Shown: positions 5,855-45,174 of the stretch, piece after piece
How positions within the stretch are numbered: position 1 is the stretch's first letter
Layout: each line of letters starts with the position of its first letter
Origin: a virus
Taxonomy: Duplodnaviria; Heunggongvirae; Uroviricota; Caudoviricetes
Strand: one strand, 5' to 3'
DNA length: 64,000 bases
Virus record (IMG/VR): IMGVR_UViG_3300031998_000001
Span: 173,064 to 237,063 of that record
Translations under genes and position numbers: made by a program
Notes under the pieces: generated by a model
Told to the model about the DNA's origin: nothing
The model's input: the letters and a program-made list of their open reading frames with translations, nothing else
The model's database searches: none

Positions 5855-5857
5855 GAA

Positions 5858-6619: not shown

Positions 6620-6653
6620 AGGTTTGAATAGACAACCGAAAAACCAAAGCGAT

Positions 6654-7898: not shown

Positions 7899-8481
7899 AA
7901 GTATGGACAGGACTGCATTTACATTCAGGTTCAGGTACACGCCCGAAGGGAGTTCCGAAACGAGGGAAACTGGGCTTGTTGACATACCCACCGCAAGCAC
8001 TGCGGGGATTGCATATTCCAACTATCTCTTCGAGGTGTGCAACATAGACAGGGGCTTCCTCGCGAAAGTCTTTGAGAGGGAACTCGCGCTTTTCAACGGG
8101 AGTGCGGAAGACTACTTCTTCAGCATATTCTACTGCGAGGCGGACAAGTTCCTGAAAGGCAACGGACTGCTTGACAAAGGGGACGCAATCGTTGACTTCG
8201 AGTGCGTGGTCGGGGACAACGCGGAGGAACTCGGCAAGTCGGTGGTGGAGAGGATAGCGAAGTTGAAGAAGGCTTGGAAGAAGGCGGAGGAAACAAATGG
8301 CGAAGAATAGGAAGAAAAAGAACACGATAGACAAGACGACGCTTGACATTATCAAGGCTGCGAGGAAGAAGTCCCGCGACGAGGAGATTGCGATGTACGG
8401 GAAGCAGATTTCTATGTACTACTGGAAGGGGGACAAGAAGCACCACGCACGGGGCGGAAAGCACAAGAGGAGATACTGCTG

Positions 8482-9552: not shown

Positions 9553-9559
9553 TAAAAAT

Positions 9560-9588
9560 CTGAAATTCCTATTTATTAACTATATATT
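9560..9588 (+). promoter_or_regulatory. CTGAAA-N17-TATATT promoter (copy 3)
   Basis: Strict motif upstream of 9622 and the clamp loader. Confidence 0.8.
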
Positions 9589-10014
9589 AGGTTTGGAAAG
9601 GAACATTAAAAATTCAAGACTATGGAAGAAAGAAGACTTAAAAGAATCGAGAACAGGAAGCCGAACCTGCGCATCACGCTCCCAGACATCTGCTGGAAGT
9701 CGATAGTGAACGAAACCCGCGACACGATATACCTGTCGATGTCGGAGAAGAACCGCAGGGTGCTCTGCCACTGCTGCGACGAGAACGGGGAGAAAGTCCT
9801 GTTCCGCGAGCCGAAGGTCGCAGTGATAGTCAACGAACGCAACGGCAACGAGAAGGTGTTTTCGGTAAGCGGAATGAGCGTAGTCCGCATCAAGGGCATC
9901 GCCCTCGAAGGCTACGAGTATGACGAGAAGCCAGCCTTTGCAATCAATGTTGCAAAGAGAAGAGGCAGACCGCCGAAGGCTGAATAATATTGACAACATT
10001 ATAATTTGATAAAG

Positions 10015-10977: not shown

Positions 10978-11022
10978 CAATGCGCTTTGTTTTTATTCAT
11001 AATAAATTTTTATTTTATCATT

Positions 11023-11058
11023 CGGGCGGAGGGATTCCCAGTCCCCTGCCTGTTTTTT
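11023..11058 (+). terminator. intrinsic terminator
   Basis: GC-rich hairpin cgggcggaggga...tcccctgcctg plus T6. Confidence 0.65.
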
Positions 11059-13250
11059 AAGGAAAGGGAGCAACTATGCCTACGATATTCGGGATAATAT
11101 TCGTTATGCTTCTCTTCAACCTGATACTCGGCTGGCTCATAGCAAGCGTAATCAGAAAGTTGAGAAGCGGGATTGTACGGCTTCTGCTGTACTGCGGTGC
11201 TATATTCACGCTCATAGTCGGTGACTATGCGCTCATTTCGTTTTTAGTAAATGCTTTGAGATGATAAGGATTGAAGATTTGAGGATTTGCCAGACCGTTA
11301 TGTACAACGGCGTGAAGTGCAGGGTGTACTCCATTATGGGTGCTCGCCCAGACAAGAATGAGAGATATGACGACAAGCCGACCGTCGAACTCTTTGACGG
11401 GGCGGGGCTAATCACCGCGCTCGAAGAGGAAATATTCCCGTGCGAAGTGGCGGAGGAGGCGACGGAGCGCAAGGCTGTGTACTCCAACGAGGACAGGAAC
11501 GACTACTACCAGAAGTGCCTTGACGAGTACGAAAGGGAGAACAGGGTGCTTATGGCACTTGTAAAGCGCGAACATCCCCGTTTGGACGAAGTGTCCAGCG
11601 AGGACTACAAGTGGCGGTATATGAACGGGGTGGACAAGGTGTTCTACGATATGATACAGTGGTTCATAAACAACCGTCAGGTCATAGGCTGTACGGGAAG
11701 GGGCTTCGCCAATTATGCCTACGATAAGGTAATGCGCCCGTACATTATAGTCAATACATATAGTGATGCGGAGATGTGCTGCGCCGACTGCGCCTTTTCC
11801 GAAGTCAACGAGCAGGGCGTGACGCTGTGCAACCCGCTGGTGTATCTCTTTGACGGCGAACATAGATTTACAGTAAGCCCGTCCGCGCATTGCAGGGCGT
11901 TTGAACACAAGTGCAAGGAATAGGAGGAAGCGATATGGCATTTCACGGAGTAACGGGCAACGCGCCGAAAGACCTTAACATAAAGGAGAAGTACGAGAAA
12001 CTCGTGCCGTACAAGTCGGAGCGCGAGATATTCAACAGCCTCGAATCGCTCAACCCGGGCGATACGCTTGAACACTGGCAATGGCAGGACATAATAATGG
12101 CGTGCCGAATAATTGCCGAGAAGAACAAGTGGTTCGGGGACAAAAGCAGGTTTACGGACGGGAAGCATATAAAGGCGGAAGGCGACAAGCCCTACGGTTC
12201 GGTAAGGAAGATACCGAAGGAAAGGAAAGGCGAATGAGCAGGTGCGGACACAGCCGATATGTCTATAACTCTGGCAAGTATCACCTTGTGTGCAAATTGA
12301 AGAAAAGAGTGTGCAAAGACAACGGCTGTTCAGATTATGTTTCAAATAATACAACAGGATATGAGAAAGAGGATAGCAAGGAAAATCGTTAACGGCTGGT
12401 CGAAGCCGAGATACAAAAAGATTAACCCGATATTGAGGGTTTGGAGGGATGTGCTCACCGACAAGATGGGCTTGCAGAAGATATACTACTGCGACATTCC
12501 GATTTACCGCAGGTGGACGGCAAGGCAACTTGCACGGGCGGAACGCAGGCTCGGAATAAAGAACGAACCGCTCCTGCCGTTGAAGTTGGAGAGTATGCCA
12601 GTGGAGATTGATATGAAGTTAAAGACGATAAGCGTTTAGATATGAAGTTCAAGGAAATTATGGAGAAGGCGAACAGGGGCGAGGAAGTCCCCTACAAGTT
12701 CGTGCATATGCTCGGCGGGACTGTCGAAGGAATCGGCAAGGTGTATGGTATTATATGTTCGGGCAACGACTGGAAGTGTGTTGTCCACTACAACGGGAAG
12801 GATTATGCCCCCAGCAAGTTCTCGTTCGACGAGGTGCTGGTGATAACGAACCCGGTGTTCGCGATAGCGATGCTTTTCTACTTCAAGGACTGGGAGGCGT
12901 TCTACGCGAAGAACCCCACGCCGTTCAAGTATTCGACCGACATACCCGAAGGGGCGATAATCGTGGTCACGACCGAAACCAGATGGAACAACGCCACTTT
13001 GGAAATGGACGGGAAGGACATAGACGAAATCTGGAATATGGCATCCGACGACAGGTCAAGGTCGGGGCATCTGATTGAAGTTAAGTGTATGAACGACAAG
13101 AAGCAGGAGGGTTATGTGGCGTACTCGCTCATAAGGGGCGTTGTTGACGGAGACCTCCGCGTCCATATAGAGCATATGCAACACATATTATGAGGGAAAT
13201 TCAAGAGGAATGTAACTTTGTATTTTTATTCATATACTATTTTCTATTTG

Positions 13251-13283
13251 AAGTGCGAGTTCGGCAAGGCTCGCACTTTTTTC
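13251..13283 (+). terminator. intrinsic terminator abutting the next promoter
   Basis: aagtgcgag / ctcgcactt stem, T-run continuing into CTGAAA. Confidence 0.75.
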
Positions 13284-13311
13284 TGAAATTATTATTTATT
13301 AACTATATATT
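13283..13311 (+). promoter_or_regulatory. CTGAAA-N17-TATATT promoter (copy 4)
   Basis: Strict motif upstream of 13345. Confidence 0.8.
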
Positions 13312-13344
13312 AGTATCGGAAAGGAAACATAAAAACTTAAAGAT

Positions 13345-14172
13345 ATGGAAATGAAACGATACTACATCCACACTGCGCTGTACGAAACCGATGTGTTCGA
13401 GTACCCAGACGACAAGACCGCTTGGAACGACTTGCGCAAGGCATTGCCCCACAAGTTCGGAACACTGTTCAGGGAAGAACCTGTTGTCGTAAAGATAAAC
13501 AACGCCGAAGAATACATACGCACATACAACGCGAAGTGCCCCAAGTATGACAACTCGAAGCCTTTCGACTTCACATACTTCCGCCCCGTTATGTTCGGGA
13601 TAACCGACGACGAGTACAACCCGTCAACGAAGGAGGAGTATGACGAAACGATGAAGATGTACGACAACAACGAGGACAACCACGCCCTTGCAATGATGTT
13701 ACGGGACAGCCTCCCGTACGGGCTGAAATGCAAGGTGACGATAGGCGACCTGACCGTCATCGAGACGCTTGATGCCGTCCGCATCGACGAGAAGCACAAC
13801 CCTGCGGTAGGACACAGGTACTTCCACACGACTGGCGAGGACGGTGTTGGCACTTGGAGCGGGTTCGGGATAAGACCGTACCTGCGGGGGATGGACACCC
13901 TCACCGACGAGGAGCGCGAGGAGTTGTATCAAAACAACAACGGCGACGCATCGTGCGAATGGTTTGCGAAAAAGCACATCGACTGGTGCAACCTCATCGG
14001 AAAGGGCTTGGCTCTGCCCGCCCCAGAGGGAATGTACGGCGAGCCAGACACCAAGGACGCGGACTGGAGGTATTATCCAAAGGACAGGTTCTCGTCCTAT
14101 GAGGAATACGCACGCTACCTTAAATGCGAAGGTCTGGCGGCGGATGCACCCGAAGGAAAGTGTAACAATTAA
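13345..14172 (+). CDS. LPYG/PYLR/HFDYRG family protein with N-terminal extension
   Basis: DSLPYGLKCKV...IRPYLRGMDTLTDEE...KHIDWCNLIGKGLALPAPEGMY. Confidence 0.75.
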   Translation: MEMKRYYIHTALYETDVFEYPDDKTAWNDLRKALPHKFGTLFREEPVVVKINNAEEYIRTYNAKCPKYDNSKPFDFTYFRPVMFGITDDEYNPSTKEEYDETMKMYDNNEDNHALAMMLRDSLPYGLKCKVTIGDLTVIETLDAVRIDEKHNPAVGHRYFHTTGEDGVGTWSGFGIRPYLRGMDTLTDEEREELYQNNNGDASCEWFAKKHIDWCNLIGKGLALPAPEGMYGEPDTKDADWRYYPKDRFSSYEEYARYLKCEGLAADAPEGKCNN

Positions 14173-14184
14173 ATCAATAGCGAT

Positions 14185-14397
14185 ATGAGACCAGAAGAAA
14201 AACAACTTTTACTTCAAGACCTATGTGCAAGATTACCCCGTATAGATGCAGGGAACACATTCAATTCCGTGGATAGGCTTACTGCCCGCCACTTCGACTG
14301 CCGTGATTTGATTGGCATTGGAAGCATCGGAAAGCAAGAAGAAAACCAACTTTTGCTCCGAGACCTTTGTGCGAAGTTGCCGTATGGGGTGAAATAA
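14185..14397 (+). pseudogene. collapsed remnant of the LPYG family (blocks A-C-A)
   Basis: DLCARLP...DRLTARHFDCRDLIG...DLCAKLPYGVK-stop; variable regions and block B absent. Confidence 0.65.
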
Positions 14398-14444
14398 TTG
14401 ATTCAAAGAAATATACGATGGACTAACTTTAAATTGCATATTGT

Positions 14445-14879
14445 ATGACCGAAGAAGAAAAACGATTATTATTCCGAGACCTCGTGGCAAGGCTTCCATA
14501 TACGCCTATGGTGAACTTGCGGGGGAAGGCGGGCTATGACAGGAAACTCGTGTCGGTGCATAGGTACACCACGCGGAGTGAGTTCGAGATTGTCGTCAAC
14601 AGCGATGATGACGAGGACTATATGCCCCACAACTTCGAGATTGACATAGTTAAGCCGTACTTGCGGTCAATGTCGAGTATGACGGAGGAAGAAATGCTTG
14701 ACTTCCACGAAAATGGCGGTGCGTTAACTCACTATCTCAAATATGACATTGATTTAGATAGTTTAACAGTTTCTGCGATTGATTGGCTTAACGAACATCA
14801 TTTCGATTATCGTGGACTGATTGGTAAGGGCTTGGCGTTGGAAGCCCCAGACGGAATGTATAACGGCAAAAACGAATAA
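14445..14879 (+). CDS. LPYG/PYLR/HFDYRG family protein
   Basis: DLVARLPY...VKPYLRSMSSMTEEE...DWLNEHHFDYRGLIGKGLALEAPDGMY. Confidence 0.85.
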   Translation: MTEEEKRLLFRDLVARLPYTPMVNLRGKAGYDRKLVSVHRYTTRSEFEIVVNSDDDEDYMPHNFEIDIVKPYLRSMSSMTEEEMLDFHENGGALTHYLKYDIDLDSLTVSAIDWLNEHHFDYRGLIGKGLALEAPDGMYNGKNE

Positions 14880-15224
14880 GATTATGACAAAGGATGAAAT
14901 TGTAAACGAACTACTGTTGCACAGCAAGTCCGACCTGTGCGAGATAATCACAAGGCTTATGGACGACGGTGCAATAGACATAACGGACATAAACGCAAGC
15001 CACATCAAGCACCTCAAAAATATCCTCAAGGAGAAGGAAAGCATCATAGAGGCTGCGGACGAGTGCATATACGAAAGCGTGTTCACCGATTCGATAGGCA
15101 AGCCCGCCGACAATGCTGGGGTGATTAAAAAGATAAGGTGGATGGAGCGCGTGGGCGGTCATAACATTGACGGCATAATGAAGTATTTTAAGGGCAATGT
15201 GGAAACGAAAGGAAAGGGCAAGAA

Positions 15225-15479
15225 ATGAGCGACAAGGACAAGGCTGACCTGCTGGCAAGGGAGGAAACGGGCGTAAGTTTCAGTGTTGCGTATAAGCAGT
15301 TGTATCCGTTTTCGAGCCTGTGTAGCGTGGCGGAGAAAATGGCGGAGTGGAAGCAACAGCAAATGATAGAGAAGGCTGTTAATTGGCTGAAAGAAAATGA
15401 AGCAAGGTATTGGTCTTCGGAATATGACACTCCACGGAGGCTACTTGATGATTTTAAAGAAGCGATGGAGGAGGAATAA
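15225..15479 (+). CDS. small 'KMAEWK' family protein
   Basis: Shares KMAEWK-Q with adjacent 15481. Confidence 0.55.
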   Translation: MSDKDKADLLAREETGVSFSVAYKQLYPFSSLCSVAEKMAEWKQQQMIEKAVNWLKENEARYWSSEYDTPRRLLDDFKEAMEEE

Positions 15480-15480
15480 G

Positions 15481-15735
15481 ATGGACAAGGCGACAAAGGA
15501 AAAGATATTGGAGATGGCGGGTTTGTGCGACGGATGCCTTGAAAAATCTTACGCAGATGACGGATGCTACTCCTGTGAAAATAGAGGAATCTACGATGGT
15601 GCGACGAAAATGGCGGAGTGGAAGGACAAGCAGTTTGAAGAGGAAAGGAAAGAACTTCTCACACTCGTGGAGATGCTCCCAGTTGACGAGAGAAACCAGA
15701 GTATTATTGAGGATTTAATCGGAATGTTACGATGA
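15481..15735 (+). CDS. small 'KMAEWK' family protein
   Basis: Tandem paralog of 15225. Confidence 0.55.
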   Translation: MDKATKEKILEMAGLCDGCLEKSYADDGCYSCENRGIYDGATKMAEWKDKQFEEERKELLTLVEMLPVDERNQSIIEDLIGMLR

Positions 15736-16158
15736 AGAACAAGGGCGAATATCTGCTTGGCAAGACGGACAGCGACTGGCACGCTGGCGGATGGCAGGTC
15801 TATGAAAAGGGAGACGGTGCGTTCCACCACTACGGCGACTTCCTTATCGACAAGGAAAAATTGAAGGTCGAACTGCCGATTGGCGAGGTCGGGCTTGAAT
15901 GGATTGACTTGGAGCAACCGCACAAGCCGACAATGTTCGAGAAGTTCAAGGCGTTGTTCGGTGTCAAGTATCCCGACACGGACTATGTAAGACCAACCCG
16001 AAACGCCATCGTGGTCGTGGACTACGGCGGGCTTATGGAGGTCGCGGATGCAAAGCCGCACACGGACGGCGGCTGCACTTGGGTCACTGAACTCAACACA
16101 TATCTGCGCCCGAAACGCTGGGCGTACATACCGGATGAAATATTTAACAAGTACGGCT

Positions 16159-16563
16159 ATGGACGAGAAAAGAAGAAAGACATTGGTTAGGGAACTTTGC
16201 GCACGGCTTCCGTATGGCGTGCAGGTGCGCACAGCGGTCAAGTACAAGACGCTCGACATCGGACTGCTCGATGCCATAATGGGCGGGCGTGCGACATTCG
16301 ACATACTCCCTCTGCTACGACCTATGGAGAGTATGTCGGATGCGGAGAGGGCGGAATATGACCGCGCCGCCGACAGGGACTTGGACAGGATGGCGGACAA
16401 GGTTGGCAGGAAACTGCAAGGGGATGAAAAACTTGATGAAACGCTCACCCCGTACTATGAGCATATTGACTGGCTTCTTGCCCACCACTTCGATTACAGG
16501 GGCTTGATTGAAATGGGGCTCGCGCTTGAAGCCCCAGAGGGAATGTATAACATTAAAGGATAG
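16159..16563 (+). CDS. LPYG/PYLR/HFDYRG family protein
   Basis: ELCARLPYGV...ILPLLRPMESMSDAE...DWLLAHHFDYRGLIEMGLALEAPEGMY; start at MDEK. Confidence 0.85.
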   Translation: MDEKRRKTLVRELCARLPYGVQVRTAVKYKTLDIGLLDAIMGGRATFDILPLLRPMESMSDAERAEYDRAADRDLDRMADKVGRKLQGDEKLDETLTPYYEHIDWLLAHHFDYRGLIEMGLALEAPEGMYNIKG

Positions 16564-17168
16564 GAATATGGAAAAAGGCTGGATAGGATTTATAGCGGGA
16601 TTTATCGTGGGTGTTATCGCAATGGGGATAACCCTTACAATCATAGAGAGCAAGCAACCGAAACCGATTGATGTGTATCGGGGAAGGACTGCGCTCAAAA
16701 TAACATACGAGGACAGCATACCCGTTGATACGGCTGTGGTGTTCAGACATAATATTTAATTTAAGAATTATGAAAAAGAAAGATATAAGAATAGGAAAGA
16801 AAGTATGGTATTATCCTATTTTAGGATTTGAGGAAAGAGAAGAAGCGGTCATAACAAGTGATATTGTTGAAGGATGCGGTACAACCTGTTGTTTTATAGA
16901 CATCCGTACATCGGTTGTCGCTATCGAAAATCTTAAAGAAAGGAATTAACTATGGCAAAGGAAGTCAGGAAGAACGAACCGAGCATACCCGAACTTATCG
17001 ACAACCTCGGCAACCAGTTCAGGGAGGTCGCAAGGCAGAAGACAAACAAGTATCTGGGCGAGAGAGCCGAATGGAACGAAAAGGAGTGGGACTTGTTCTG
17101 CGCTGGCGTGGTATGCGGGCTTTACGAGGCGGCGGTGTCGCTTGTGCTGAACAATAACGACGGGAAAG

Positions 17169-17774
17169 ATGAATAGGGAGGAACTTGGAATACTGGCGAG
17201 GGACTTGTTCGCCCGCATACCCTTCGGGGTGATGTGCAGGGAAAGTGACGCAGAGCCAGCCGTGTACGGCAGGGTGTACGACTACAGCATATATTCGGCG
17301 ACCATAACATACGGGGACACCGACCATACCAAGCACCTGCCCGTTAACGAGTGGCTTGCTGGAGGCGGAAGGATATGCCTCCGCCCGATTGCCGATATGA
17401 CTTCGGACGAGTTGGAGTTCCTCGTGGACAACTATGTGTTCGAGAGGGGATATGCCATTGGGGACGGCAAGGATATGTTTGATGTCGGGGAGATAGAACT
17501 TCGTGATATGGCGAGGATTATCGACTTCTTTGATTCCCGACACATTGACTACCGAAACCTCATCGGCAGGGGCTTGGCGATACCCGCCCCAGAGGGGATG
17601 TACGAACTCCCTCCGCTGTGGTGCGTGTGCGAGTGTCCGAACCAGCCGAACGGGATGTCGGTAGAACCGCTTGAAGGCTTCTATGCGACGCACGGGGAAG
17701 TCTATACGAAAGGCACGAAGGCGGAGTGCAGGGAGTGGCTTGACAATTACAGGAAAACACATAAAAGAAAATAA
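17169..17774 (+). CDS. LPYG/PYLR/HFDYRG family protein with C-terminal extension
   Basis: DLFARIPFGV...ICLRPIADMTSDE...HIDYRNLIGRGLAIPAPEGMY plus about 55 aa. Confidence 0.8.
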   Translation: MNREELGILARDLFARIPFGVMCRESDAEPAVYGRVYDYSIYSATITYGDTDHTKHLPVNEWLAGGGRICLRPIADMTSDELEFLVDNYVFERGYAIGDGKDMFDVGEIELRDMARIIDFFDSRHIDYRNLIGRGLAIPAPEGMYELPPLWCVCECPNQPNGMSVEPLEGFYATHGEVYTKGTKAECREWLDNYRKTHKRK

Positions 17775-19843: not shown

Positions 19844-19914
19844 TTTTCTGAAATTATAATAAATAGCCTATATATTAGTGTCGGAAGGAAACATTAGGAC
19901 TTAAAGATATGGAC
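19844..19914 (+). repeat. 71-bp perfect direct repeat containing promoter copy 5 (19848-19876) and start codon
   Basis: Identical to 49208-49278. Confidence 0.9.
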
Positions 19915-32938: not shown

Positions 32939-33032
32939 AATAAATTATGACCCGAAACAGTATTAAACCGTTTAAAAGCATTGCAAGAATCAAATTTATA
33001 AATAATATGTGGTTGTATATACACAACGGACT

Positions 33033-34424
33033 ATGATAACACTGAAGTTGAAATACGAGGCGAGCGATGAAGCGAAGGCTTTTATCCGTGAGTGCAGACG
33101 GCAATACTCGTCCGCGCTCCGCTTCGCGTACAACCGTGCCATCGACGGCTGGAACGGAAAGCAAATCCGCGATGCGATAAAGTTCGAGTTGAACAATGTC
33201 GGTCTTATGGACAGTTATATGGCTGCCTGCGTCGAGCAGGACGCGACATCCAAATGTAAATCAGTAAAAGAATCCGACAATCCAGACGCAAAATACATAT
33301 TCGGCGGACGCAAGAACTTCATCCGCCGTTGCAAGGGGCTTATAACGAAGGAAGCGTTTGATGACAAGAGATTATCTCCGCTATTGGTCGTAGGCGAGGC
33401 GAACCTAAAGGCGAACCGCAAGTTCGCCATAAACGAGGATTTGAGGTCGATACTGTTTAAAATCAACAAGAACAGCCATTACCAACTAAACCTAATCGGT
33501 GTTTACGGCAAGCGCAAGCAGATTTTATCCAAATTATACGAATTGCAATGCGCCAAAGCAACGCCCATAACATACAAACTTGATAGCGAATATGTCTATC
33601 TTTCGTTTGACGAGACAAAGGTCGAACACTACAAGCGAGACAACGCAATAAAAAACCGCGTGATGGCTATTGATATGAACCCGAACTACATCGGCTGGTC
33701 AATCGTTGACTGGAAAGGCGAGAATGAGTTTAGCATAGTCAAGCAAGGCGTATTCTCGATTAAGCAGATAAACGATATTGCACAGCAACTATCGAAATCA
33801 AAGACCGATTCGTCCGACCCGAAGAAGACATACATAGAGAACAAGCGCGTCCACGAGACATACGAGGTGTCGAAGAAGTTAATCCGCATATGCCTGCACT
33901 ACCGCTGCGAGATGTTCGCAATCGAGGACTTGGACATACGGGGCAAGGATTCTGGTCGAGGACACGGCTACAACCGTCTTGTCAACAACAACTGGTGTCG
34001 GAACAGCCTTGAACTTAATTTGCAGAAGCGTTGCAACATATTCGACATAAAGTTCCTGAAGGTCAAGCCGAACTACAGTTCGTTTGTCGGTAACTTCGTG
34101 TTCAGGCGTTTGAACCTTCCCGATATGGTTCTGGCATCAATCGAAATAGGCAGGCGCGGATACGAGTATAACTTGCAATACATAGAAAAGAAGAAAGATA
34201 TTAAGCGCAACATAATGTTTCCAGACAGTGAAGCCTACAGAGCGTCCATCTCCAAGTCATTGGAAGAATTTGGTCTGGACGACGGTGTTAGTCTTCTGGA
34301 AGCGTATGATGCGTTAAAAAAGTCTGGAACCAGATACAGGCTTTCCTTCGACCAGTGCGGGACAAGGTTTTCGAGGTGCTTTTCAAAGGCGAGCCTAATA
34401 TTAAAGAGTTTAAACGGTTTTTAA
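33033..34424 (+). CDS. divergent TnpB-related RuvC nuclease without Zn finger
   Basis: IFGGRKNF, RuvC-I AIDMNP, RuvC-II IEDL, KPNYSSFVG, RuvC-III candidate PDMVLASIEIGRR. Confidence 0.75.
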   Translation: MITLKLKYEASDEAKAFIRECRRQYSSALRFAYNRAIDGWNGKQIRDAIKFELNNVGLMDSYMAACVEQDATSKCKSVKESDNPDAKYIFGGRKNFIRRCKGLITKEAFDDKRLSPLLVVGEANLKANRKFAINEDLRSILFKINKNSHYQLNLIGVYGKRKQILSKLYELQCAKATPITYKLDSEYVYLSFDETKVEHYKRDNAIKNRVMAIDMNPNYIGWSIVDWKGENEFSIVKQGVFSIKQINDIAQQLSKSKTDSSDPKKTYIENKRVHETYEVSKKLIRICLHYRCEMFAIEDLDIRGKDSGRGHGYNRLVNNNWCRNSLELNLQKRCNIFDIKFLKVKPNYSSFVGNFVFRRLNLPDMVLASIEIGRRGYEYNLQYIEKKKDIKRNIMFPDSEAYRASISKSLEEFGLDDGVSLLEAYDALKKSGTRYRLSFDQCGTRFSRCFSKASLILKSLNGF

Positions 34425-34888
34425 TATGAATGATAGAAAGCAACATTTGAGTTACTCATTGGACATAGTGAAGGCAAGGGACGGGCGAGTGATGTTCGAC
34501 CTTGTGAACGATGCGTGCGACACGCACAACATATTCTACGGGGACAAACTCGTTGAAAGCACGAAGGAGTGGAACATAAGGTACAATGGCGTTGAGAACA
34601 ACAACGACCCTGAATACGAGTTCGTGGATATGACATCCCCAGAAGCACCGAATATGACTACGGAGGAATGGGACATATTGCGCCTACATTACCGCAGGCT
34701 TCTCTGTGGCGATGACTGGACGGACGATGAAATCACGGGTGCAAAGATACGCCTTGCCGTAGGTATGGCAAAACGCTTCAAGATGCCTCTCGACTTCGCC
34801 TTCGGGATACTTACCGACAAGGAGAGGGCTGTGTACGAGGCGAACAAGGAGATGTATGACAAGTGCGAACCGTTAAATGTATAGCAGG

Positions 34889-35314
34889 ATGAGCGAAAAG
34901 GACAGGCAAGAGGTTATCAGGGAACTGCTGTCCCGAATACAATACGGGGTGGTATTCAAGGTGGACGAGAATGTCGAGGGCTGGGAGAAGGGCAATATCC
35001 CAGTCGAAGGCGTGGAGAACGGTGTCGGGAACATCGGCGGACGCAATGTGGAAGCCCTGCTCGGCGCGTTCGAGCGCGGGGACATAGACATAAGGCTGTA
35101 CCTGCGCCCGATGGACGATACGGCGGATGCGTGGATGAACCAGATGCGCCACATAGTTGAATATGACAACGCGCACGGGGGCGGACGCGAAATGACCGAC
35201 CTGTTCCTGCCGAAGTTGACGGAGTTCATTTTCGGCAACCACTACGACACGAACGATATGATTGGGCGCGGGCTTGCGCTGCCCGCCCCAGAGGGAATGT
35301 ATAACGAGCAATAA
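34889..35314 (+). CDS. LPYG family protein, array gene 1
   Basis: ELLSRIQYGV...LYLRPMDD...HYDTNDMIGRGLALPAPEGMY. Confidence 0.8.
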   Translation: MSEKDRQEVIRELLSRIQYGVVFKVDENVEGWEKGNIPVEGVENGVGNIGGRNVEALLGAFERGDIDIRLYLRPMDDTADAWMNQMRHIVEYDNAHGGGREMTDLFLPKLTEFIFGNHYDTNDMIGRGLALPAPEGMYNEQ

Positions 35315-35322
35315 TCAAGGAT

Positions 35323-35763
35323 ATGGCAAGGGAAGAAAAACAACTACTACTGATTGACATTTGTGCAAGGTTGCCGTATGGGGTAATGTGTAATGTGTTC
35401 AATGGCAAATATGATGAAGATATGAAATTATCTCCGTCACTTTTGAGTTGGGATATAAATGATATTAAGCCCTACCTCCGTCCGCTGAATACGATAACAG
35501 ATACAGAGGTCAGTCGCGCAATAGGCATAATCACGGGCGGAGTTTCAAGATGGAGCGAAAGGGATAAACGCTGGTACTACATTGTTCACGACCCAAGCAT
35601 CGGGGAGATAGAGAGCGACTTCGACTTGGACTATTTCGCGCACGGCTACTACGGCATAGACAATATGGATTTCCTTAACTCGCACCACTTCGACTACCGC
35701 GGTCTTATCGAGAAGGGGCTGGCGTTGCCTGCGCCCGAAGGGATGTACGAACCAGAAAAATAA
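35323..35763 (+). CDS. LPYG family protein, array gene 2
   Basis: DICARLPYGV...IKPYLRPL...HHFDYRGLIEKGLALPAPEGMY. Confidence 0.85.
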   Translation: MAREEKQLLLIDICARLPYGVMCNVFNGKYDEDMKLSPSLLSWDINDIKPYLRPLNTITDTEVSRAIGIITGGVSRWSERDKRWYYIVHDPSIGEIESDFDLDYFAHGYYGIDNMDFLNSHHFDYRGLIEKGLALPAPEGMYEPEK

Positions 35764-35770
35764 TATAGCA

Positions 35771-36265
35771 ATGATAGAGGACGAATATAAATTATTGCTG
35801 GCGCAGAGCATACTCGGTCAAATGTGCCACGGCTTGAAAGTGAACTTCAGAATATTCGACCATAGTGAAGAAAAGATGGTCGAACTTGTAGGCGATGTGT
35901 TTTCGTTCGATATATATCACGGATATATTGTCGGTATAAGCAGCGGTGGCATTGACTACCAAGTCGATATGATGAAGGTCAAGCCGTATCTCCGTCCGCT
36001 CGAAAGTATGACGGATGATGAGAAATCCAAATTGAAATCGGCAACAGGTGTAACATTCAAGGAGGAGGACAACGGAAGACACAGCGAATTGTACGGCTAT
36101 GCTATGGTTTACCATAAATCATATTTTGAGGAATGGTTTATTCCGTACGAATGTAACGACTGGTGCGACCGCAACCACTTTGACTATCGCGGCTTAATAG
36201 ATAAATGCTTGGCGTTGCCTGCGCCAGAGGGAATGTATGACAAGTGTGAAACTTCAAATATATAG
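35771..36265 (+). CDS. LPYG family protein, array gene 3
   Basis: MCHGLKV...VKPYLRPLESMTDDE...NHFDYRGLIDKCLALPAPEGMY. Confidence 0.85.
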   Translation: MIEDEYKLLLAQSILGQMCHGLKVNFRIFDHSEEKMVELVGDVFSFDIYHGYIVGISSGGIDYQVDMMKVKPYLRPLESMTDDEKSKLKSATGVTFKEEDNGRHSELYGYAMVYHKSYFEEWFIPYECNDWCDRNHFDYRGLIDKCLALPAPEGMYDKCETSNI

Positions 36266-36269
36266 GGAT

Positions 36270-37424
36270 ATGACAACGGAAGAAAAGACTACGATTATGA
36301 ATATGGAAATCTGCGCAAGGCTTCCATACGGGGTGAGGTGCAAGGTAAATGCAAAGGGCTTTCTCGATTGGGTGCAGGAAGTGTTCGAGAAGAAACTCGT
36401 GGTGTCCACGCCCGAAATATGCGAGATTCTTACCAGAAGGTCGTTCGTGATAGAGGGTATGCCCGCATACGACAGGTTCACCCTCAAGGGCTTCTGCGAC
36501 TACGGCTGCGGCGTACCGTCGCGCTTCATAGAGTTGTGCCTGCGCCCCCTTGACGATATGACTGCGGAGGAGCAGAAGGAGTACAATTCGCTCTATGCGG
36601 AGAACGAGGACGGCAACGAGTATGACGACCTGCTGCAGTACGGGAGGCTTACCGACTGGCTCTATGCCAACCACTTCGACTTCCGACACCTCATCGAAAG
36701 AGGGCTTGCGGTTGACAGCGTGAGCGTGCCGAAGATAAAGCGGGCGTTCCTGCTCTGCTCGAAGCCCCACATCGCCATAAGCGAGATGTACGGAAATAGT
36801 TTCGACAACATAACGAAGAACAGGGAGAAGTACCTCGCCTTCTTGAGAAAGGTCGATGAGGACGGGCGCATTGACGAACTCTGCGCCATTATGAAGAAGC
36901 ACGGGCTTCTCGTCACGAAGACATATATGGGTATGACGGACGAGGAGAAGGATATGCTCCTCAAAGACCTCGCCACAAGGCTTCCCTATGGCGTGAAGGT
37001 GCATTGCGAATGGCACGAGCATCAGGAGGACGAGCCGACAGCCGACACGGGCGAACTTGTGTCGGTGGATATGAAGGACAGGACGATAATGTTCCATCGG
37101 AGCGACGGGCACTACTGGACTTCCGTTCCGTTCAACAGGGACGGCTGTACGGTCAAGCCGTACCTCCGCCCGATTGAAACTATGACGGAGGACGAAAGGA
37201 GGGTGCTGAAGAGCCAGATGCGGAAGGACATCGACGAACTTGACGAGACGGAGGAAAGCAAGGTGTTCACGAAGGGGATATGCCAGAACACGGTGAACCT
37301 CGACTACCTAAATTCCCACCACCTCGACTACCGTGGGCTTACGGGCAGGGACTTGGCGTATGAAGCCCCGGAGGATATGTACGACATAAAGGAAGAAAGG
37401 GACGGGGAAGATGGAAACGATTGA
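36270..37424 (+). CDS. LPYG family protein with two tandem domains, array gene 4
   Basis: EICARLPYGV...HFDFRHLIERGLA, then DLATRLPYGV...VKPYLRP...HLDYRGLTGRDLAYEAPEDMY. Confidence 0.85.
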   Translation: MTTEEKTTIMNMEICARLPYGVRCKVNAKGFLDWVQEVFEKKLVVSTPEICEILTRRSFVIEGMPAYDRFTLKGFCDYGCGVPSRFIELCLRPLDDMTAEEQKEYNSLYAENEDGNEYDDLLQYGRLTDWLYANHFDFRHLIERGLAVDSVSVPKIKRAFLLCSKPHIAISEMYGNSFDNITKNREKYLAFLRKVDEDGRIDELCAIMKKHGLLVTKTYMGMTDEEKDMLLKDLATRLPYGVKVHCEWHEHQEDEPTADTGELVSVDMKDRTIMFHRSDGHYWTSVPFNRDGCTVKPYLRPIETMTEDERRVLKSQMRKDIDELDETEESKVFTKGICQNTVNLDYLNSHHLDYRGLTGRDLAYEAPEDMYDIKEERDGEDGND

Positions 37425-37621
37425 GGTCGATACTATGCTCGGCAAGGTCAAGTGTGGCGAGCGGGACTACAGGAACGCACGGGAGGCATTCGATATGTGC
37501 TGGGCGTTGAAGCGCGACGGATATTCGGAAAAGGAGTTGCAGGGCTACTTCGACAACTTCCTGTACGGCTACCTCGTGGCGATGAAGATTTCAAGAAGTT
37601 CATATCAAAACTGTTAGGGAT

Positions 37622-38035
37622 ATGGCAAGCAAGAAGGGCACAATGACGCAGGAAGAGCAGAACCTTCTCATAGACGATATGCTCCCGCGCATAAGGCGTT
37701 CAAAGTTGCTCGCACGGAACAACAGGGACGGGCATCTTCTCCGTATATGCGGGATAGGTTCGTTCGGCGCGATGGTGTTCGCCCGCGACACGGACTACTA
37801 TTACACCGATGTTACGGTGGATTTGACCGACATAACGGTTTACCTTCGTTCGATGTCAACTATGACGGAAGCGGAAGAAGATGAGTATAACGCGCTCAAC
37901 GGCTATGAAAGGGGAGTGTTTCCATCCACCGTGGATGCGTTCGACTGGCTCTTGGAACACCGCTTCGACTATCGCGGTCTTATCGGCAGGGGCTTGGCGG
38001 AGGAAGAGCCAAGCGGGATTGCGGACGATGTTTAG
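37622..38035 (+). CDS. LPYG family protein (divergent block A), array gene 5
   Basis: VYLRSMSTMTEAE...DWLLEHRFDYRGLIGRGLA. Confidence 0.8.
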   Translation: MASKKGTMTQEEQNLLIDDMLPRIRRSKLLARNNRDGHLLRICGIGSFGAMVFARDTDYYYTDVTVDLTDITVYLRSMSTMTEAEEDEYNALNGYERGVFPSTVDAFDWLLEHRFDYRGLIGRGLAEEEPSGIADDV

Positions 38036-38043
38036 GACATTTT

Positions 38044-38072
38044 CTGAAATCGTTATATATTTCCAATATATT
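38044..38072 (+). promoter_or_regulatory. CTGAAA-N17-TATATT promoter (copy 9), internal to the array
   Basis: Strict motif upstream of ATG 38097. Confidence 0.8.
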
Positions 38073-38096
38073 ATAGTTGGAGAAAACATTGAAACT

Positions 38097-38492
38097 ATGA
38101 CGGAAGAACAGAAGAAAATATTGTTGAAAGACCTGTCGGCAAGAGTGCCGTACCGCCCGAAGTTCATAACATACGCACTAACCTATGACAAGGGGGTTAA
38201 TGTGGCTACCGATATTGTGCGGGGCATAGTCGATGACAGCATAGTCGGGGAGAACGGAAGTTATAGGTTGGACAAGTCTATGCTGTTCCTCCGTCCTATG
38301 TCAACTATGACAGAAGCCGAAAGGAAGGTATATGACAAATTGAGCCGTATGGATGACGAATATTCGCAGCCACACGATTCTTCCCATTTGGTTGACTGGC
38401 TCAACGAGCACCATTTCGACCACAGGGGATTGATAGGGATGGGCTTGGCGACACCCGCGCCCGAAGGGATGTATGACAACAAAAATAATTAA
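38097..38492 (+). CDS. LPYG family protein, array gene 6
   Basis: DLSARVPY...LFLRPMSTMTEAE...DWLNEHHFDHRGLIGMGLATPAPEGMY. Confidence 0.85.
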   Translation: MTEEQKKILLKDLSARVPYRPKFITYALTYDKGVNVATDIVRGIVDDSIVGENGSYRLDKSMLFLRPMSTMTEAERKVYDKLSRMDDEYSQPHDSSHLVDWLNEHHFDHRGLIGMGLATPAPEGMYDNKNN

Positions 38493-38496
38493 GGAT

Positions 38497-38919
38497 ATGA
38501 CAAGTGAAGATAGGCAATTAGTCGCGAAGGCACTCTGCGGATACCTGCCTTACGGGTTGAAGTTCAGGCAGACTGACGAATCGACCATAACATTAAAGGG
38601 GCTATGTATCGAGGGCAATATCATAACGGTCAATCCGAAAATGCAATACGGGTTTAATCTGGTCAACGAATACGGGGACTTGGAGTACAAGCCCTACCTC
38701 CGCCCAATGTCAGATATGACGGAGAAAGAAATGAGCGAATTGAGGCAATGGGGAAGTTTATGTATGTATAATGATAACACCGTACAAGACATTGGTGTAT
38801 ATGGTGCTATTCATAGTATTCCCGTCATTGACTGGCTCAACGCCCATCACTTCGATTACAGGGGCTTGATTGAAATGGGTCTGGCGTTGCCCGCACCCGA
38901 AGGAATGTATAATAATTAA
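38497..38919 (+). CDS. LPYG family protein, array gene 7
   Basis: ALCGYLPYGL...YKPYLRPMSDMTEKE...DWLNAHHFDYRGLIEMGLALPAPEGMY. Confidence 0.85.
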   Translation: MTSEDRQLVAKALCGYLPYGLKFRQTDESTITLKGLCIEGNIITVNPKMQYGFNLVNEYGDLEYKPYLRPMSDMTEKEMSELRQWGSLCMYNDNTVQDIGVYGAIHSIPVIDWLNAHHFDYRGLIEMGLALPAPEGMYNN

Positions 38920-38935
38920 AATTATAATAACGGTT

Positions 38936-39382
38936 ATGATACTAACAAAAGAACAAAAGAAACTCCTATTGGATGACCTCTGTGCGAGGTTGCCCTATGG
39001 TGTAAGGGGGACGGTGAAAACCACCGACGGCAACGGACAGGAAATCACGGATGACGGGATAATCAACAGTGCCTTCATCAATGAGCACGGCAAGGCATAC
39101 ATCTGCATTGAGAGCGCAGAGTATGAACTTGAAGATGTCAAGCCCTACCTCCGAACAATGTCAAGTATGACGGTCGAGGAAGAAGCACAAGTGCATAGGT
39201 TTATGGACATTGTTACGGATGAAAACTATGGCGACGGCTATTCACCATCCGCTTGGGATGCAATGAACGGTTTTGTGCAATATTGTGACTCGCATCATCT
39301 TGACCACAGGGGGCTGATATTCAGAGGGCTTGCTCTTGAAGCACCAGAAGGAATGTATAACGACCAAATGACAGCGATATGA
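38936..39382 (+). CDS. LPYG family protein, array gene 8
   Basis: DLCARLPYGV...VKPYLRTMSSMT...HHLDHRGLIFRGLALEAPEGMY. Confidence 0.85.
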   Translation: MILTKEQKKLLLDDLCARLPYGVRGTVKTTDGNGQEITDDGIINSAFINEHGKAYICIESAEYELEDVKPYLRTMSSMTVEEEAQVHRFMDIVTDENYGDGYSPSAWDAMNGFVQYCDSHHLDHRGLIFRGLALEAPEGMYNDQMTAI

Positions 39383-39753
39383 CAGAAGAAGAAAAAAGAC
39401 TTTTAATCCAAGACCTCGTGGCAAGAGTGCCGTATGGGGTAAGGGGCAAAACGCTCGGTTGCAAAACCTGTACATTGGTGTATATTGGCGTTGCTGGGGA
39501 TTTCACAGCCGACACATATCACGGATGGATAGGGCGCAAGCAGTTCGTGCCTTACCTCCGCCCGATGTCGGATATGACGGAGGACGAGTTCAAGGAATGG
39601 CACGACAGGATTAGACCGATGTATGACGGCAAGCCGTATGAGTCGGAGGGCGCGGACATCGACTTTTTCAACAAGCACCATATAGATTACCGCGACTTGA
39701 TTGGGAAGGGGTTGGCGTTGAAAGCCCCAGACGGAATGTATGACGGGCAATAA
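39379..39753 (+). CDS. LPYG family protein, array gene 9
   Basis: DLVARVPYGV...FVPYLRPMSDMTEDE...HHIDYRDLIGKGLALKAPDGMY. Confidence 0.85.
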   Translation: MTEEEKRLLIQDLVARVPYGVRGKTLGCKTCTLVYIGVAGDFTADTYHGWIGRKQFVPYLRPMSDMTEDEFKEWHDRIRPMYDGKPYESEGADIDFFNKHHIDYRDLIGKGLALKAPDGMYDGQ

Positions 39754-39761
39754 TCAAGGAT

Positions 39762-40247
39762 ATGACAAGGGAGGAAAAACAACTACTGCTTGCCGACTTA
39801 TGCGCAAGGTTGCCATACGGGGTGAAGTGCAAGGTGGAAACCTGCGCACCACCAGCAACTATCGCGAGCATAAACGATGAAGGCGGAGTGACGGTAAGGC
39901 TTGTTGACAAGAACGGAATGACACGAGGGGTAGGCTGGGACTACTTGGCTGACATAAAACCTTACCTCCGCCCAATAGATACAATGACTGGGGATGAGAG
40001 GGGTGAATTGCTGTTTCTTTTGGCAGAAGGAAGAACGAACATAGAACTTAACACCAACGGTCAACTAATAACAAAAGATGATGTTAAACTTGGATTTAAC
40101 TACCCGTTTGTATGTCCGCAAGGTAGTGGTGAATACATTGATTTTCTTAATGCCCACCATTTCGACTACAGAGGTTTGATTGAGAAGGGGCTGGCGTTGA
40201 AAGCCCCAGATGGAATGTACGATGACAAAAAACGATTAGGGTTATGA
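39762..40247 (+). CDS. LPYG family protein, array gene 10
   Basis: DLCARLPYGV...IKPYLRPIDTMT...HHFDYRGLIEKGLALKAPDGMY. Confidence 0.85.
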   Translation: MTREEKQLLLADLCARLPYGVKCKVETCAPPATIASINDEGGVTVRLVDKNGMTRGVGWDYLADIKPYLRPIDTMTGDERGELLFLLAEGRTNIELNTNGQLITKDDVKLGFNYPFVCPQGSGEYIDFLNAHHFDYRGLIEKGLALKAPDGMYDDKKRLGL

Positions 40248-40606
40248 CAACGGAAGAAAGACAGTTACTGCTTGCCGACTTATGCGCAAGGCTACCATAC
40301 GGGGTGAACATAAATTTGGATGAAGAATATAATGCACGCTTGACGGGCATAGACGAAGACGGCAACCTGACCGCCGACATCCCCGCCGATTTTGCTTTCA
40401 GCATTGACGAAATTAAGCCTTACCTCCGTCCTATGGAGAGTATGACGGATGAAGAAGGTAAGGAATATAATATCTTATTGACTACTGGTCAATGCTTTAA
40501 GTTGGTTGATTATCTAAATAGGAAAATGTTCGACTATCGCGGGCTTATACCAATGGGCTTGGCACTGCCCACCCCAGACGGAATGTATAACGGACAAAAC
40601 AATTAA
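40244..40606 (+). CDS. LPYG family protein, array gene 11
   Basis: DLCARLPYGV...IKPYLRPMESMTDEE...MFDYRGLIPMGLALPTPDGMY. Confidence 0.85.
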   Translation: MTTEERQLLLADLCARLPYGVNINLDEEYNARLTGIDEDGNLTADIPADFAFSIDEIKPYLRPMESMTDEEGKEYNILLTTGQCFKLVDYLNRKMFDYRGLIPMGLALPTPDGMYNGQNN

Positions 40607-40610
40607 GATT

Positions 40611-41009
40611 ATGACGAAAAAACAGAAACAACTGCTTGTAAAGGCACTCTGCGGATATTTGCCGTATGGCTTGAAGATATGCAAGGTGAAGCCGTCGTTC
40701 CTGAAGGAAGATGGCTTGCACATACAGGACGCACAGGGGATAGACCTTGTGCTGACGATAGTGCTCACCAACACATTCGCCCGCGTGGAAGATATGAAGC
40801 CGTACTTGCGACCGATGTCAAGTATGACCGAGAAGGAAAGGGCGAAATACCTTAAAGCCTGCGACAAGGAAACGGATGATGCGCTGGCGCAGCCGAGATA
40901 CAGCGGGGTTGACTGGCTTAACGAACACCATTTCGATTACCGTGGATTGATTGGAATGGGGCTTGCGCTGGAGGCGGAAGAAGGAATGTATGACAACAAA
41001 AACGAATAA
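40611..41009 (+). CDS. LPYG family protein, array gene 12
   Basis: ALCGYLPYGL...MKPYLRPMSSMTEKE...DWLNEHHFDYRGLIGMGLALEAEEGMY. Confidence 0.85.
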   Translation: MTKKQKQLLVKALCGYLPYGLKICKVKPSFLKEDGLHIQDAQGIDLVLTIVLTNTFARVEDMKPYLRPMSSMTEKERAKYLKACDKETDDALAQPRYSGVDWLNEHHFDYRGLIGMGLALEAEEGMYDNKNE

Positions 41010-41472
41010 GTATGCCGAGATACTACAAGTATGACATTGACGACCTGAAGGAACTGCACGAGGCTTGCAGGACTGTCGGGGGGCTGAACAAATGGGTTGA
41101 CGGACACTACCGCTACACCTGCTCGTGCTGCGGCAAGGACGAGTTGTACCACCAGTCGCCAGTATTGGGCAACGAGATGTGGAAGGGGGTGTGCAGGACG
41201 CTCGGACTCGAATACCCGAACGGGAAGCACCCGAACAACATAGGCAGGACTTACCGCCTTCCCCGTGACAAGGACGGGCAGGCTGCCGTCAGGTTCTACC
41301 GATTCTTCGACGAGATAGGCAGGGTGTGGGGCGATGACACATACACTATGCTCTGCCGCGGGTGCGTGGAGAAGGCACTTGGCAGACCGCTGGTGAAAGC
41401 CGACCTGCCCGACTGCGGGCTTAACAGGATGCACATTGACGAATATGGAGATTAGGATACCGATAATATTTC

Positions 41473-41501
41473 CTGAAATTCTTATATATTTCCAATATAT
41501 T
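41473..41501 (+). promoter_or_regulatory. CTGAAA-N17-TATATT promoter (copy 10)
   Basis: Strict motif upstream of 41529; a degenerate copy (ATGAAG-N17-TATATT) lies at 42234-42262. Confidence 0.8.
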
Positions 41502-41528
41502 ATAGTTGAAAAGAAAACATAAAAGGTT

Positions 41529-42242
41529 ATGAAGAATTTTTTTATCGCGTTAATGCTGTGCGTAGTTAGCATTTTGGGATTGGTTTCTTGTGACAACACA
41601 TTGAATAAAACCATTGATGAACCATTATCGTTCAAAGAAATTGTGAATGTTGATGACAGTGTTTTTAGCCATATCTATGATATTTACCGCAAAAGGTTTG
41701 ATACACTGCCGACATCGCGTAAAGTTAAATATCACGATATAACATATCGGGAGATACTGGATTATGAGAAAAAAGAAGACGAACTATATAACGATTCTAT
41801 TTTGAAGAAATCTTTTGAAAGCGATTGGCGCAATGAATATTACGATGTTATTCATAAAGGTGATTCACTAATAGAGTATTGGTGGAATAGAGATGATTGT
41901 TTTATAGTAAATTATAAAGGCAAGAGGTGTGTTAAGGATAAGATGATTTGGTATGATACCGATATGCCGTTTAATGTGGAATATTATTTTAAAAGTATTG
42001 AAAAGGCACAAGATGATTATTGGTCGGATAGTATAAGACACGGAAAAGAATACGCCGATAAATCGTTGGAGTGGAAAACCGCATTATATAAAGGTTTTAT
42101 ATATGAAGAATATGATAAAAACTTTGTAACATTTGAAACATATTATTATAGAAAAATTGATTCTATAATGGAAGAATTTAACTCAAAAGTAAATAACTTT
42201 AATGTAGATTACTATAAGACCATTGAAGTTCATATGAAGTAA
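41529..42242 (+). CDS. AT-rich putative lipoprotein
   Basis: MKNFFIALMLCVVSILGLVS-C signal; visibly low GC. Confidence 0.6.
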   Translation: MKNFFIALMLCVVSILGLVSCDNTLNKTIDEPLSFKEIVNVDDSVFSHIYDIYRKRFDTLPTSRKVKYHDITYREILDYEKKEDELYNDSILKKSFESDWRNEYYDVIHKGDSLIEYWWNRDDCFIVNYKGKRCVKDKMIWYDTDMPFNVEYYFKSIEKAQDDYWSDSIRHGKEYADKSLEWKTALYKGFIYEEYDKNFVTFETYYYRKIDSIMEEFNSKVNNFNVDYYKTIEVHMK

Positions 42243-43068
42243 TCACATATTTCCGATATATTATAGTTGAAAAGAAACATAAAGGATATGGAAACGAAAA
42301 CTATCACATTGAAGGAAGCGACAGAAGCGGTCAAGGGGCTGTTCGATGTCAGCACATACGGCAACCGACAGGATGGCAAGTCGTACTTTGTGGAAAACTC
42401 TAACGGCACAACTTTCTACTTTGACAAACGCCAGTATTGGCGCGATGAAGTCATCGGGAAGTTGAGCGAGTATTTCAACGGCAAGCGCATCGATGGCGGG
42501 CAGTGCCGAATAGACGGCATCACGCTTCTGTGGACTACCGTCCATCTGGAGAAACTCCCCGAAGAAAAAGAAGAGAAGTCCCCAGTGCCTTTCACGGATG
42601 TCTGGGAGAAGCACCGCGACCTTACGGTGGTGATGGAGAACGGTGAAGCCGTGAAACTCCGTGACCTGTCGGACGATGACCTGAAGGGCATTGTCAGACG
42701 CAAGGTCAGCGTCAAGGCGGAAGATTCCAATGTGCCTCCGTTGACGGTCATCCGCGTCGTGCAGGGGGAGATTATGTACCGAATGAACAAGAACACATAT
42801 AACCCGTCATTCTAACGGCAACTATGGAAAGGACAACTGGTTGGAAAATAATTAAATTTAATGAATATGGATACGACTACTAAAAAAGAAGCAAAGCATT
42901 ACGACACTTTGGAAGAATTAACGGAAAGGGTCAAGAATTATAATGAAGCAAAACAACAATTTCCTACAACGGGCGATGTACCTGAAATGACTCCAATAAC
43001 GGAAAAATCACCAGAAATGGTAACGGTATTTGTTGATTTTAAATAAGAGTGTATAAAATTTAAGGACT

Positions 43069-44778: not shown

Positions 44779-45174
44779 ATGACAGAGGAGGAAAAGACAT
44801 TGCTCATCAAGGTACTGGCGGAGCAGTCGCCATACGGATTGAAGGTAAGGAAAGCCAATACCAACAGGAGAACGGTAAGGGGCGTTGATGCCATTGCGGG
44901 CATCGTCCACTTCGAGAACGACACGATAAGTCCGTTTGGTCTTGACATAGAGCATCCGCTTACATTCAGGCAGCAGGTCAAGCCGTACTTGCGCCCTATG
45001 TCGAGTATGACTGAAAGCGAGGAGGGTGAATACAATTCGCTGAACGGCTACGAAAGGGGAGTGTTTCCGTCCAGTGCGGATGCGTTGGACTGGCTGAACG
45101 CCCACCACTTTGACTGGCGCGGTCTAATTCAGAAAGGCTTGGCTGCCGAGGCGGAAGAAGGGATGTATAACTAA
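44779..45174 (+). CDS. LPYG family protein
   Basis: EQSPYGLKV...VKPYLRPMSSMTESE...DWLNAHHFDWRGLIQKGLAAEAEEGMY. Confidence 0.85.
   Translation: MTEEEKTLLIKVLAEQSPYGLKVRKANTNRRTVRGVDAIAGIVHFENDTISPFGLDIEHPLTFRQQVKPYLRPMSSMTESEEGEYNSLNGYERGVFPSSADALDWLNAHHFDWRGLIQKGLAAEAEEGMYN

Follow-up and report, generated by a model that had tools for sequence, protein, structure and literature searches.

An array of 12 paralogous genes with 13 domains lies head to tail on the plus strand at positions 34889-41009 of the window, that is, of the whole 64,000-nucleotide stretch of Caudoviricetes DNA analysed here, and is very likely reshuffled by homology-directed exchange at three conserved coding blocks. The counts were obtained from the open reading frame (ORF) listing and position-specific scoring matrices for the blocks. 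Each domain has the plan A-V1-B-V2-C, in which blocks A (LCARLPYGV), B (KPYLRPM..MT.EE) and C (DWLN.HHFDYRGLI..GLAL.APEGMY) are separated by two variable modules, V1 and V2; the proteins have 120-165 amino acids (aa) per domain. Rearrangements between strains lay at the blocks and kept exact register, and V1 and V2 reassorted independently of each other. The original prediction for this DNA had counted 12 paralogs and 13 domains in 6.1 kb, interrupted only by ORF 37411 and one internal promoter, and the analysis confirmed these counts as well as the interruptions (ORF 37411-37617 and a promoter-like repeat at 38039-38086). It had also viewed the array as an accordion of gene cassettes exchanged at a junction repeat, an idea that was largely borne out, although the cassettes had to be replaced by the shuffling of two modules at three coding blocks.

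Ten loci from related strains were fetched and aligned (about 92-99.9% identity; 9-13 domains), and all strains compared in this work were metagenomic contigs. Strains spanning the full array had 13, 12, 12, and 9 domains with differing modules; copy number and content varied among relatives whereas the order was mostly kept, common modules being mostly collinear. The V1 at 38563, in family gene 7 (38497-38919), was paired with three V2s across strains, one of which other strains carry on the neighbouring gene, and the V2s at 38322, 39999 and others were paired with two or three V1s. In gene 6 (38097-38492), V1 or both modules were replaced in L007, L010, L011, and L018. Modules of different strains were either at least 87% identical (80% for one pair) or unrelated, and the sole clear module hybrid lay outside the array, in gene 46895 of L015. 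The V2 swap in gene 7, between blocks B and C at about 38724-38833, was present in contigs from four runs, each belonging to a different study; for X3 and X5, the depth of the alternative V2 (7-15, vs. around 20-23 for the upstream contigs, the shorter side being 61 letters) suggested mixed populations. Joints with sides under 30-45 nt at 85% likeness were dropped, as they possibly belonged to paralogs of other phages, and those at 38724-38833 and 45011-45088 were kept. Contig joints that go back, which might point to mini-circles, were short and ambiguous. Payloads had been expected to be duplicated, deleted or swapped; gain or loss and swaps were indeed seen, but no fresh tandem duplication, and the single pair of modules shared within one locus was about 80% identical and 7 kb apart.

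The 27 distinct breakpoints mapped were distributed as nine in block C, six in A, four in B, and eight in spacers, gene tails or the non-family ORF. None fell in V1 or V2, though these modules occupy 46% of the array (P = 5.7e-8), and 19 of the 27 were located in A, B or C (41% of the length; P = 0.002). Breakpoints had been expected to respect the conserved blocks, and this held, both in the absence of breaks from the payload modules and in the in-register junctions that skip whole units. Six junctions could be read against both parent paralogs, and each switched sharply from one to the other, in codon register and without insertion or deletion: A to A in L007, spacer/A in L019, and C to C in L007, L011, L017, and L019; they are unpolarised, and for each the relative may have lost sequence or the window gained it. 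Gene 9 (39379-39753) was absent in L007 through the A-to-A junction (39432-39435 / 39815-39818) and gene 11 (40244-40606; 120 aa) through a C-to-C junction; a C-to-C junction in L017 likewise accounted for the absence of gene 10 (39762-40247) there. The C-to-C junction of L019 (L019:11300-11317; window 36710 / 48860) was also in register and skipped 12.15 kb, including many non-family genes.

Exchange was also seen between alleles and inside genes. L018 had no mismatches to the window over 36200-38153, switched inside block A of gene 6 (38117-38153) and continued at 94% identity to an L011-type strain, which looks like allelic exchange from the alignment. L009 differed from the window in one tract of the dispersed family gene at 44779-45174, from the start of B through V2 to the middle of C (44979-45135), with flanks around 99% identical. 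Breakpoints in C, spacer and A, where the original prediction had placed the crossovers, were real, but the junction was not the sole site; block B, inside the gene (for example 38689-38730), was a third one, so the unit of exchange is a module smaller than a gene.

Blocks A, B and C make up the conserved scaffold of the proteins. Since every paralog has them, as do other rumen phages, they would act as short patches of partial homology. Exchange between two A or two C blocks would remove or insert whole genes, exchange from A to B would replace V1 and from B to C would replace V2, or both might be replaced; modules could be brought in from other phages at the same patches, and the variants would spread between strains through ordinary allelic recombination. 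The exchange might be done by the phage's own T4-type machinery (UvsX, gp32, gp46/47, and UvsW) or by template switching during replication.

An improbable alternative is that the stretch of about 100 bp running from C through the stop and spacer into A is a dedicated DNA repeat, with whole-gene cassettes moved by unequal crossover within the array. The pair of junctions quoted for it, 35285-35385 and 39724-39824, was claimed to match at roughly 80% and showed 84% identity ungapped (18-34% at neighbouring offsets), which places it at the top of the range. The best pairs reached 80-84%, several junctions fell in late C, spacer or early A (L007, L011, L017, and L019), and 22 of the 27 breakpoints lay in C, junction (J) or A, all of which fits such a repeat. 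Over all 36 junction pairs, however, the identity of the C and A blocks had a median of 59% (range 52-82%) and the longest perfect run a median of about 10 nt, and synonymous sites within the blocks had identical codons at a frequency of 0.42-0.47, a small excess over the 0.36-0.38 expected from codon usage. This indicated that the repeat is largely a by-product of protein conservation, and the notion of a special conserved DNA element was abandoned; a few junction pairs appear to have been homogenised more recently. The spacer caataatcaaggatatg occurred at two of the nine junctions, and its core AAGGATATG, with 31 copies in the genome on the plus strand and one on the minus strand, looks like a general start motif. 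A dedicated junction repeat is further contradicted by the swaps anchored in B and the reassortment of V1 and V2, by the lack of fresh duplicates, and by new payloads that are AT-rich and match other phages. The payloads had been described as unrelated, and the modules were indeed variable, but each payload carries conserved block B, and the V2 of gene 5 (37622-38035, block A from 37643) recurs in gene 44779 at 76-80% identity.

Rearrangement independent of homology could instead occur anywhere, with selection keeping intact proteins and the blocks being merely the boundaries of survivors. The very short perfect matches at the mapped crossovers, the equal plasticity of a flank of unrelated genes and the purifying selection acting on the modules all agree with this, but at six junctions two paralogs are joined at an identical codon position without any indel, whereas a random join would be in register only once in several hundred bases or so, and many other in-frame joins in spacers or gene tails would have been tolerated by selection; we consider this explanation highly unlikely. 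Selection against broken folds does add to the breakpoint pattern, and the exact register is not easily explained by it. Least credible of all is a dedicated system, such as a site-specific recombinase of the integron or shufflon type or a diversity-generating retroelement (DGR). The record is only about 93% complete and the search covered the enzymes of the phage record, which leaves this option some room. Nevertheless, no integrase, resolvase or reverse transcriptase (PF00589, PF00239, and PF00078, respectively) was matched in that 93%-complete record, in accordance with the earlier claim that no dedicated recombinase is involved; crossovers occupied many positions across the three blocks instead of a single site, and there were no notable inverted repeats. 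A Rad52 candidate was rejected, the match being below the cut-off and on a P-loop protein.

Several observations weigh against homology-directed exchange at A, B, and C, or limit what it explains. Present-day blocks of the paralogs are only around 55-66% identical, and perfect homology at five mapped crossovers was 0-8 nt, reaching 26 nt for the closest pair; RecA/UvsX-type enzymes generally act on longer homology, which may mean that closer-matching donor copies exist beyond those sampled, or that exchange proceeds by template switching. Chimeras broken inside V1 or V2 would also be removed by selection alone, and the breakpoint statistic therefore overstates the mechanism; in addition, BLAST ends extend into the conserved blocks, and the breakpoints are partly interdependent. 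One break internal to V1 did occur outside the array (gene 46895 in L015), and the 12-kb C-to-C junction of L019 was seen in a single contig. Near-identical recent tandem duplicates were not found in the strain loci, where assemblies can collapse duplicates. The right flank, formed mostly by unrelated small genes, had 1.5 breakpoints per kb vs. 1.4 in the array. Finally, the ratio of nonsynonymous to synonymous polymorphism (pN/pS) in the modules was 0.22-0.25, similar to that of neighbouring genes and with no sign of positive selection within modules, which indicates that module diversity arises through replacement and not through rapid point substitution.

Most of the new payloads look imported from other phages and not duplicated within the array. 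GC content was 0.39 in strain-variable modules and 0.545 in fixed ones, with values at third codon positions (GC3) of 0.41 and 0.74, respectively (P around 1e-5); the fixed modules match the composition style of the genome, and the AT-rich variable modules are probably imports by the same token. Array modules recurred in other rumen phage contigs at 73-94% DNA identity with different partners. For example, the V1 of gene 8 (38936-39382) was found in distant phages at 76-83% DNA identity with other V2s, and the V2 of gene 10 was paired with many V1s in homologs; at the protein level, P0004 joins the V1 of gene 10 to the V2 of gene 11. Among 199 distinct family proteins, a set enriched for relatives of one query and whose pairs are accordingly not independent, 242 pairs had a common module at 60% identity or more; 237 of them shared one module only and five shared both. 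Within the phage itself, a 168-bp piece inserted in the array of L010 (L010:8693-8860) had 93% identity to window 2900-3067, which covers the upstream region and the beginning of gene 3045, suggesting that sequence moves between the array and the dispersed cluster.

The remaining genes of the array differed in their stability. Gene 1 (34889-35314; 141 aa) kept both modules in every strain spanning it, and gene 12 (40611-41009) was also present in every strain that covered its position. Genes 2 (35323-35763) and 3 (35771-36265) were replaced or absent together, with one different family gene in their place in L001, L010, and L011, and both absent in L019. Gene 4 (36270-37424) consists of two domains joined by a linker, the second starting at 36933, and its modules were kept in relatives. 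The non-family ORF at 37411-37617 (68 aa) had a divergent allele in runs X3 and X5. The family amounts to 28 domains genome-wide, one of them a fragment. Dispersed members in the window, on the plus strand, start at 1625, 3045, 3516, around 13660, 14185 (the fragment), 14445, 16159, and 17169 (region 1625-17774) and, besides gene 44779, at 46895 and around 48490; four more lie outside the window. Gene 1625 (1625-2887) carries a family domain with long C-terminal extensions. The fragment at 14185-14397 is a collapsed remnant (A, a short C and A again), probably a recombination scar, and similar short remnants were observed at L007:496-663 and L017:878-1021.

The broken right flank ruled out the array as a uniquely hot spot; being equally plastic, it indicates that the array forms part of a hyperplastic region, of which intragenic exchange is the special feature. 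The left flank was quieter (0.37 ends per kb). Many right-flank breakpoints coincided with the start of a gene or with the promoter-like repeat, for which a promoter role is presumed; it has around 33 copies genome-wide, 30 of them on the plus strand, and occurs at window 1001, 6588, 13280, 19845, 25879, 30043, 38041, 41470, 49209, and 53461. In L009, the copy corresponding to window position around 49209 and the window sequence 19844-19914 are identical over 71 bases. A gene of 237 aa at 41529 lies between one such repeat (41469-41531) and a partial copy (42229-42283); it was absent in L001, L007, L010, L011, L015, and L017, the join falling within the repeat, and appears to be an insertion or deletion of the PeSL type described below. 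Most strains without it have an extra family gene after 41455 that is missing from the window. In L014 (L014:825-932; window 41459 / 43845) a 2.4-kb block of non-family genes was missing from a strain otherwise 97-99.5% identical. On the other side, a 463-aa ORF resembling an IS605-type TnpB (window 33009-34424) was absent at the site in L001, L011, and L019 and present in L018; related copies occur elsewhere, for example at G000 340965-342383.

Two AlphaFold2 models (mean predicted local distance difference test score, pLDDT, of 93), one of them for the gene 11 protein, displayed an N-terminal helix formed by block A, a small V1 beta-barrel closed by a strand of B, and helices from B, V2, and C. 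V1 would thus form most of a small SH3/Tudor-like barrel and V2 a helical or loop insert. The A-V1-B barrel resembled Tudor, chromo and KOW domains weakly (best Z 5.5; root-mean-square deviation 1.4 over 47 residues); matches to Tudor, chromo and Hfq structures were many and weak (Z no higher than 5.5), and Foldseek against the PDB gave none at E < 0.001. No solved structure matching the whole domain was found by Foldseek against the PDB or by VIA, and the whole fold matched only unannotated viral clusters (ESM Atlas/BFVD; template modelling score 0.81-0.86). A homodimer model scored 0.84 vs. 0.52 for the best control, and the score of the model was reached by 20 of 30 solved pairs and by one of 23 single chains; runs agreed in at least 97% of contacts, with pLDDT of at least 90. 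The modelled interface would involve block A and the start of C, which contribute much of it, and strands of V1. These predictions lend support to putative dimers of the family proteins, and natural two-domain fusions (gene 36270, P0023, P0032, and P0183) are compatible with such pairing.

The family profile gathered 8,193 clusters at 50% identity. Most family loci elsewhere had one to three domains; an unrelated 413-kb rumen phage carries 18 domains in 12 kb, 13 of them in one run (L055:621-11568), and one of its V1 modules is also found in window gene 3045. P0103 and P0113, from a cluster of 62 Atlas members, combine a family domain with DUF6794 (PF20594) in one protein. Curated Pfam, NCBIfam and PADLOC models gave no match among the members scanned, and the only sequence match was to phrog_10841, weak to moderate (best E 9e-12). 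In INPHARED, tblastn returned no match for one member and weak matches only for another; the best of these, to an Aeromonas phage structural gene between the portal and capsid genes (E 4e-5) was rejected as probably due to chance. Single-protein scans of viral_contigs for two orthologs gave no match, and no description of the family was found in a literature search whose coverage was incomplete.

The virus record containing the window has 387,654 bp and an estimated completeness of 93%, and the runs with most of the window come from bovine gut metagenomes. The putative major capsid protein shares 40% identity with that of an uncultured 462-kb phage and around 30% with those of Prevotella Lak megaphages, and Pfam matches identified genes for gp32, UvsW, gp46/47-type (SMC/Mre11-type) and RecA/UvsX proteins; the capsid match together with these genes indicated a T4-like jumbo phage of the cattle rumen. 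Four of the five family matches in bacterial genome bins fell in Bacteroidales bins, a weak hint of a Bacteroidales host. The uvsX/recA gene, outside the window, is split (G000:C1:32869-35476; L105:270-2877) into three pieces, in an arrangement reminiscent of fractured genes with split inteins. The first is a 323-aa N-terminal part that closes with an intein N-half (GG|CLV); the second, a separate ORF of 336 aa that Pfam did not match, may be a homing endonuclease; and the third, further downstream, seems to consist of an intein C-half (HN|S) followed by the remaining RecA.

With regard to function, the proteins may be non-essential cytoplasmic binders, probably early, whose variable surfaces would face targets of the host or of rival phages in an arms race; our confidence in this falls somewhat short of even. 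A broader proposal, which we advance only tentatively and regard as rather unlikely, is that gut and rumen phages (probably of Bacteroidales hosts) hold a community-wide combinatorial library of binders directed against changing host defences, with a constant dimerising scaffold and two modules exchanged, independently of each other, among paralogs and across phage lineages without a dedicated enzyme, to which paralog heterodimers would add combinations. Since the modules come ready sorted, function can be tested module by module. The family exceeds 8,000 clusters (50% identity), reaches around 28 domains in a single genome and has neither a Pfam or NCBIfam model nor a solved structure; it thus points to a large class of phage accessory proteins, and the mapped crossovers offer a natural test system for UvsX-type recombination of lytic phages at 55-80% identity.

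The array can be compared with several known systems. In the T4-type phages RB49 and phi1, PeSL shuffling inserts, deletes or replaces small non-essential genes through recombination at dispersed short repeats and leaves chimeric repeats behind (Arbiol et al., 2010; PMC2839356). The array likewise lies in a hyperplastic region of a T4-like genome with repeat-based gain, loss and replacement of genes; however, PeSLs are non-coding cassettes of a promoter and a stem-loop that move whole unrelated ORFs, whereas the array uses coding homology within one family to move modules smaller than a gene. No terminator-like site was found on the plus strand within 34000-42500, and the promoter-like repeat occurs once inside the array. 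In hsdS, two variable target recognition domains (TRDs) are shuffled between conserved blocks, including domain movement (DoMo; Furuta et al., 2011; PMC3077401). Both systems reassort two variable domains at conserved flanks between alleles and loci, with gain and loss of units, but no relation in sequence or fold was found, V1 and V2 fold differently with no swap of position seen between them, and the array has 12 tandem paralogs where hsdS has one or few loci; Pfam, NCBIfam and PADLOC gave no TRD/Methylase_S or hsdM/hsdR-type match in the members scanned. The T-even gp38 adhesins carry hypervariable segments between conserved core motifs that allow their interchange (Trojet et al., 2011; PMC3157838). 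They share with the family the combination of variable segments and conserved structural motifs in a phage protein, but gp38 is a single-copy receptor-binding protein of the virion with glycine-rich motifs, and the family is multicopy, situated among small accessory genes and devoid of such motifs. In temperate phages with Rad52-like recombinases, relaxed homologous recombination (De Paepe et al., 2014; PMC3945230) also places mosaic borders in short, divergent homologies; in contrast, the phage of the array has a RecA/UvsX type. Integrons and shufflons depend on a fixed site and a tyrosine or serine recombinase, whereas crossovers in the array are scattered and PF00589 and PF00239 gave no match; DGRs need a reverse transcriptase and a pair of template and variable repeats (TR/VR), whereas here whole modules are replaced and PF00078 gave no match. 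The array thus works like PeSL, hsdS, and gp38 shuffling and is in keeping with relaxed homologous recombination, while being a member of none of them, nor an integron, shufflon or DGR. Shuffling at short homologies was already known in T4-like phages and hsdS; in the array it acts on two sub-gene modules of a multicopy family.

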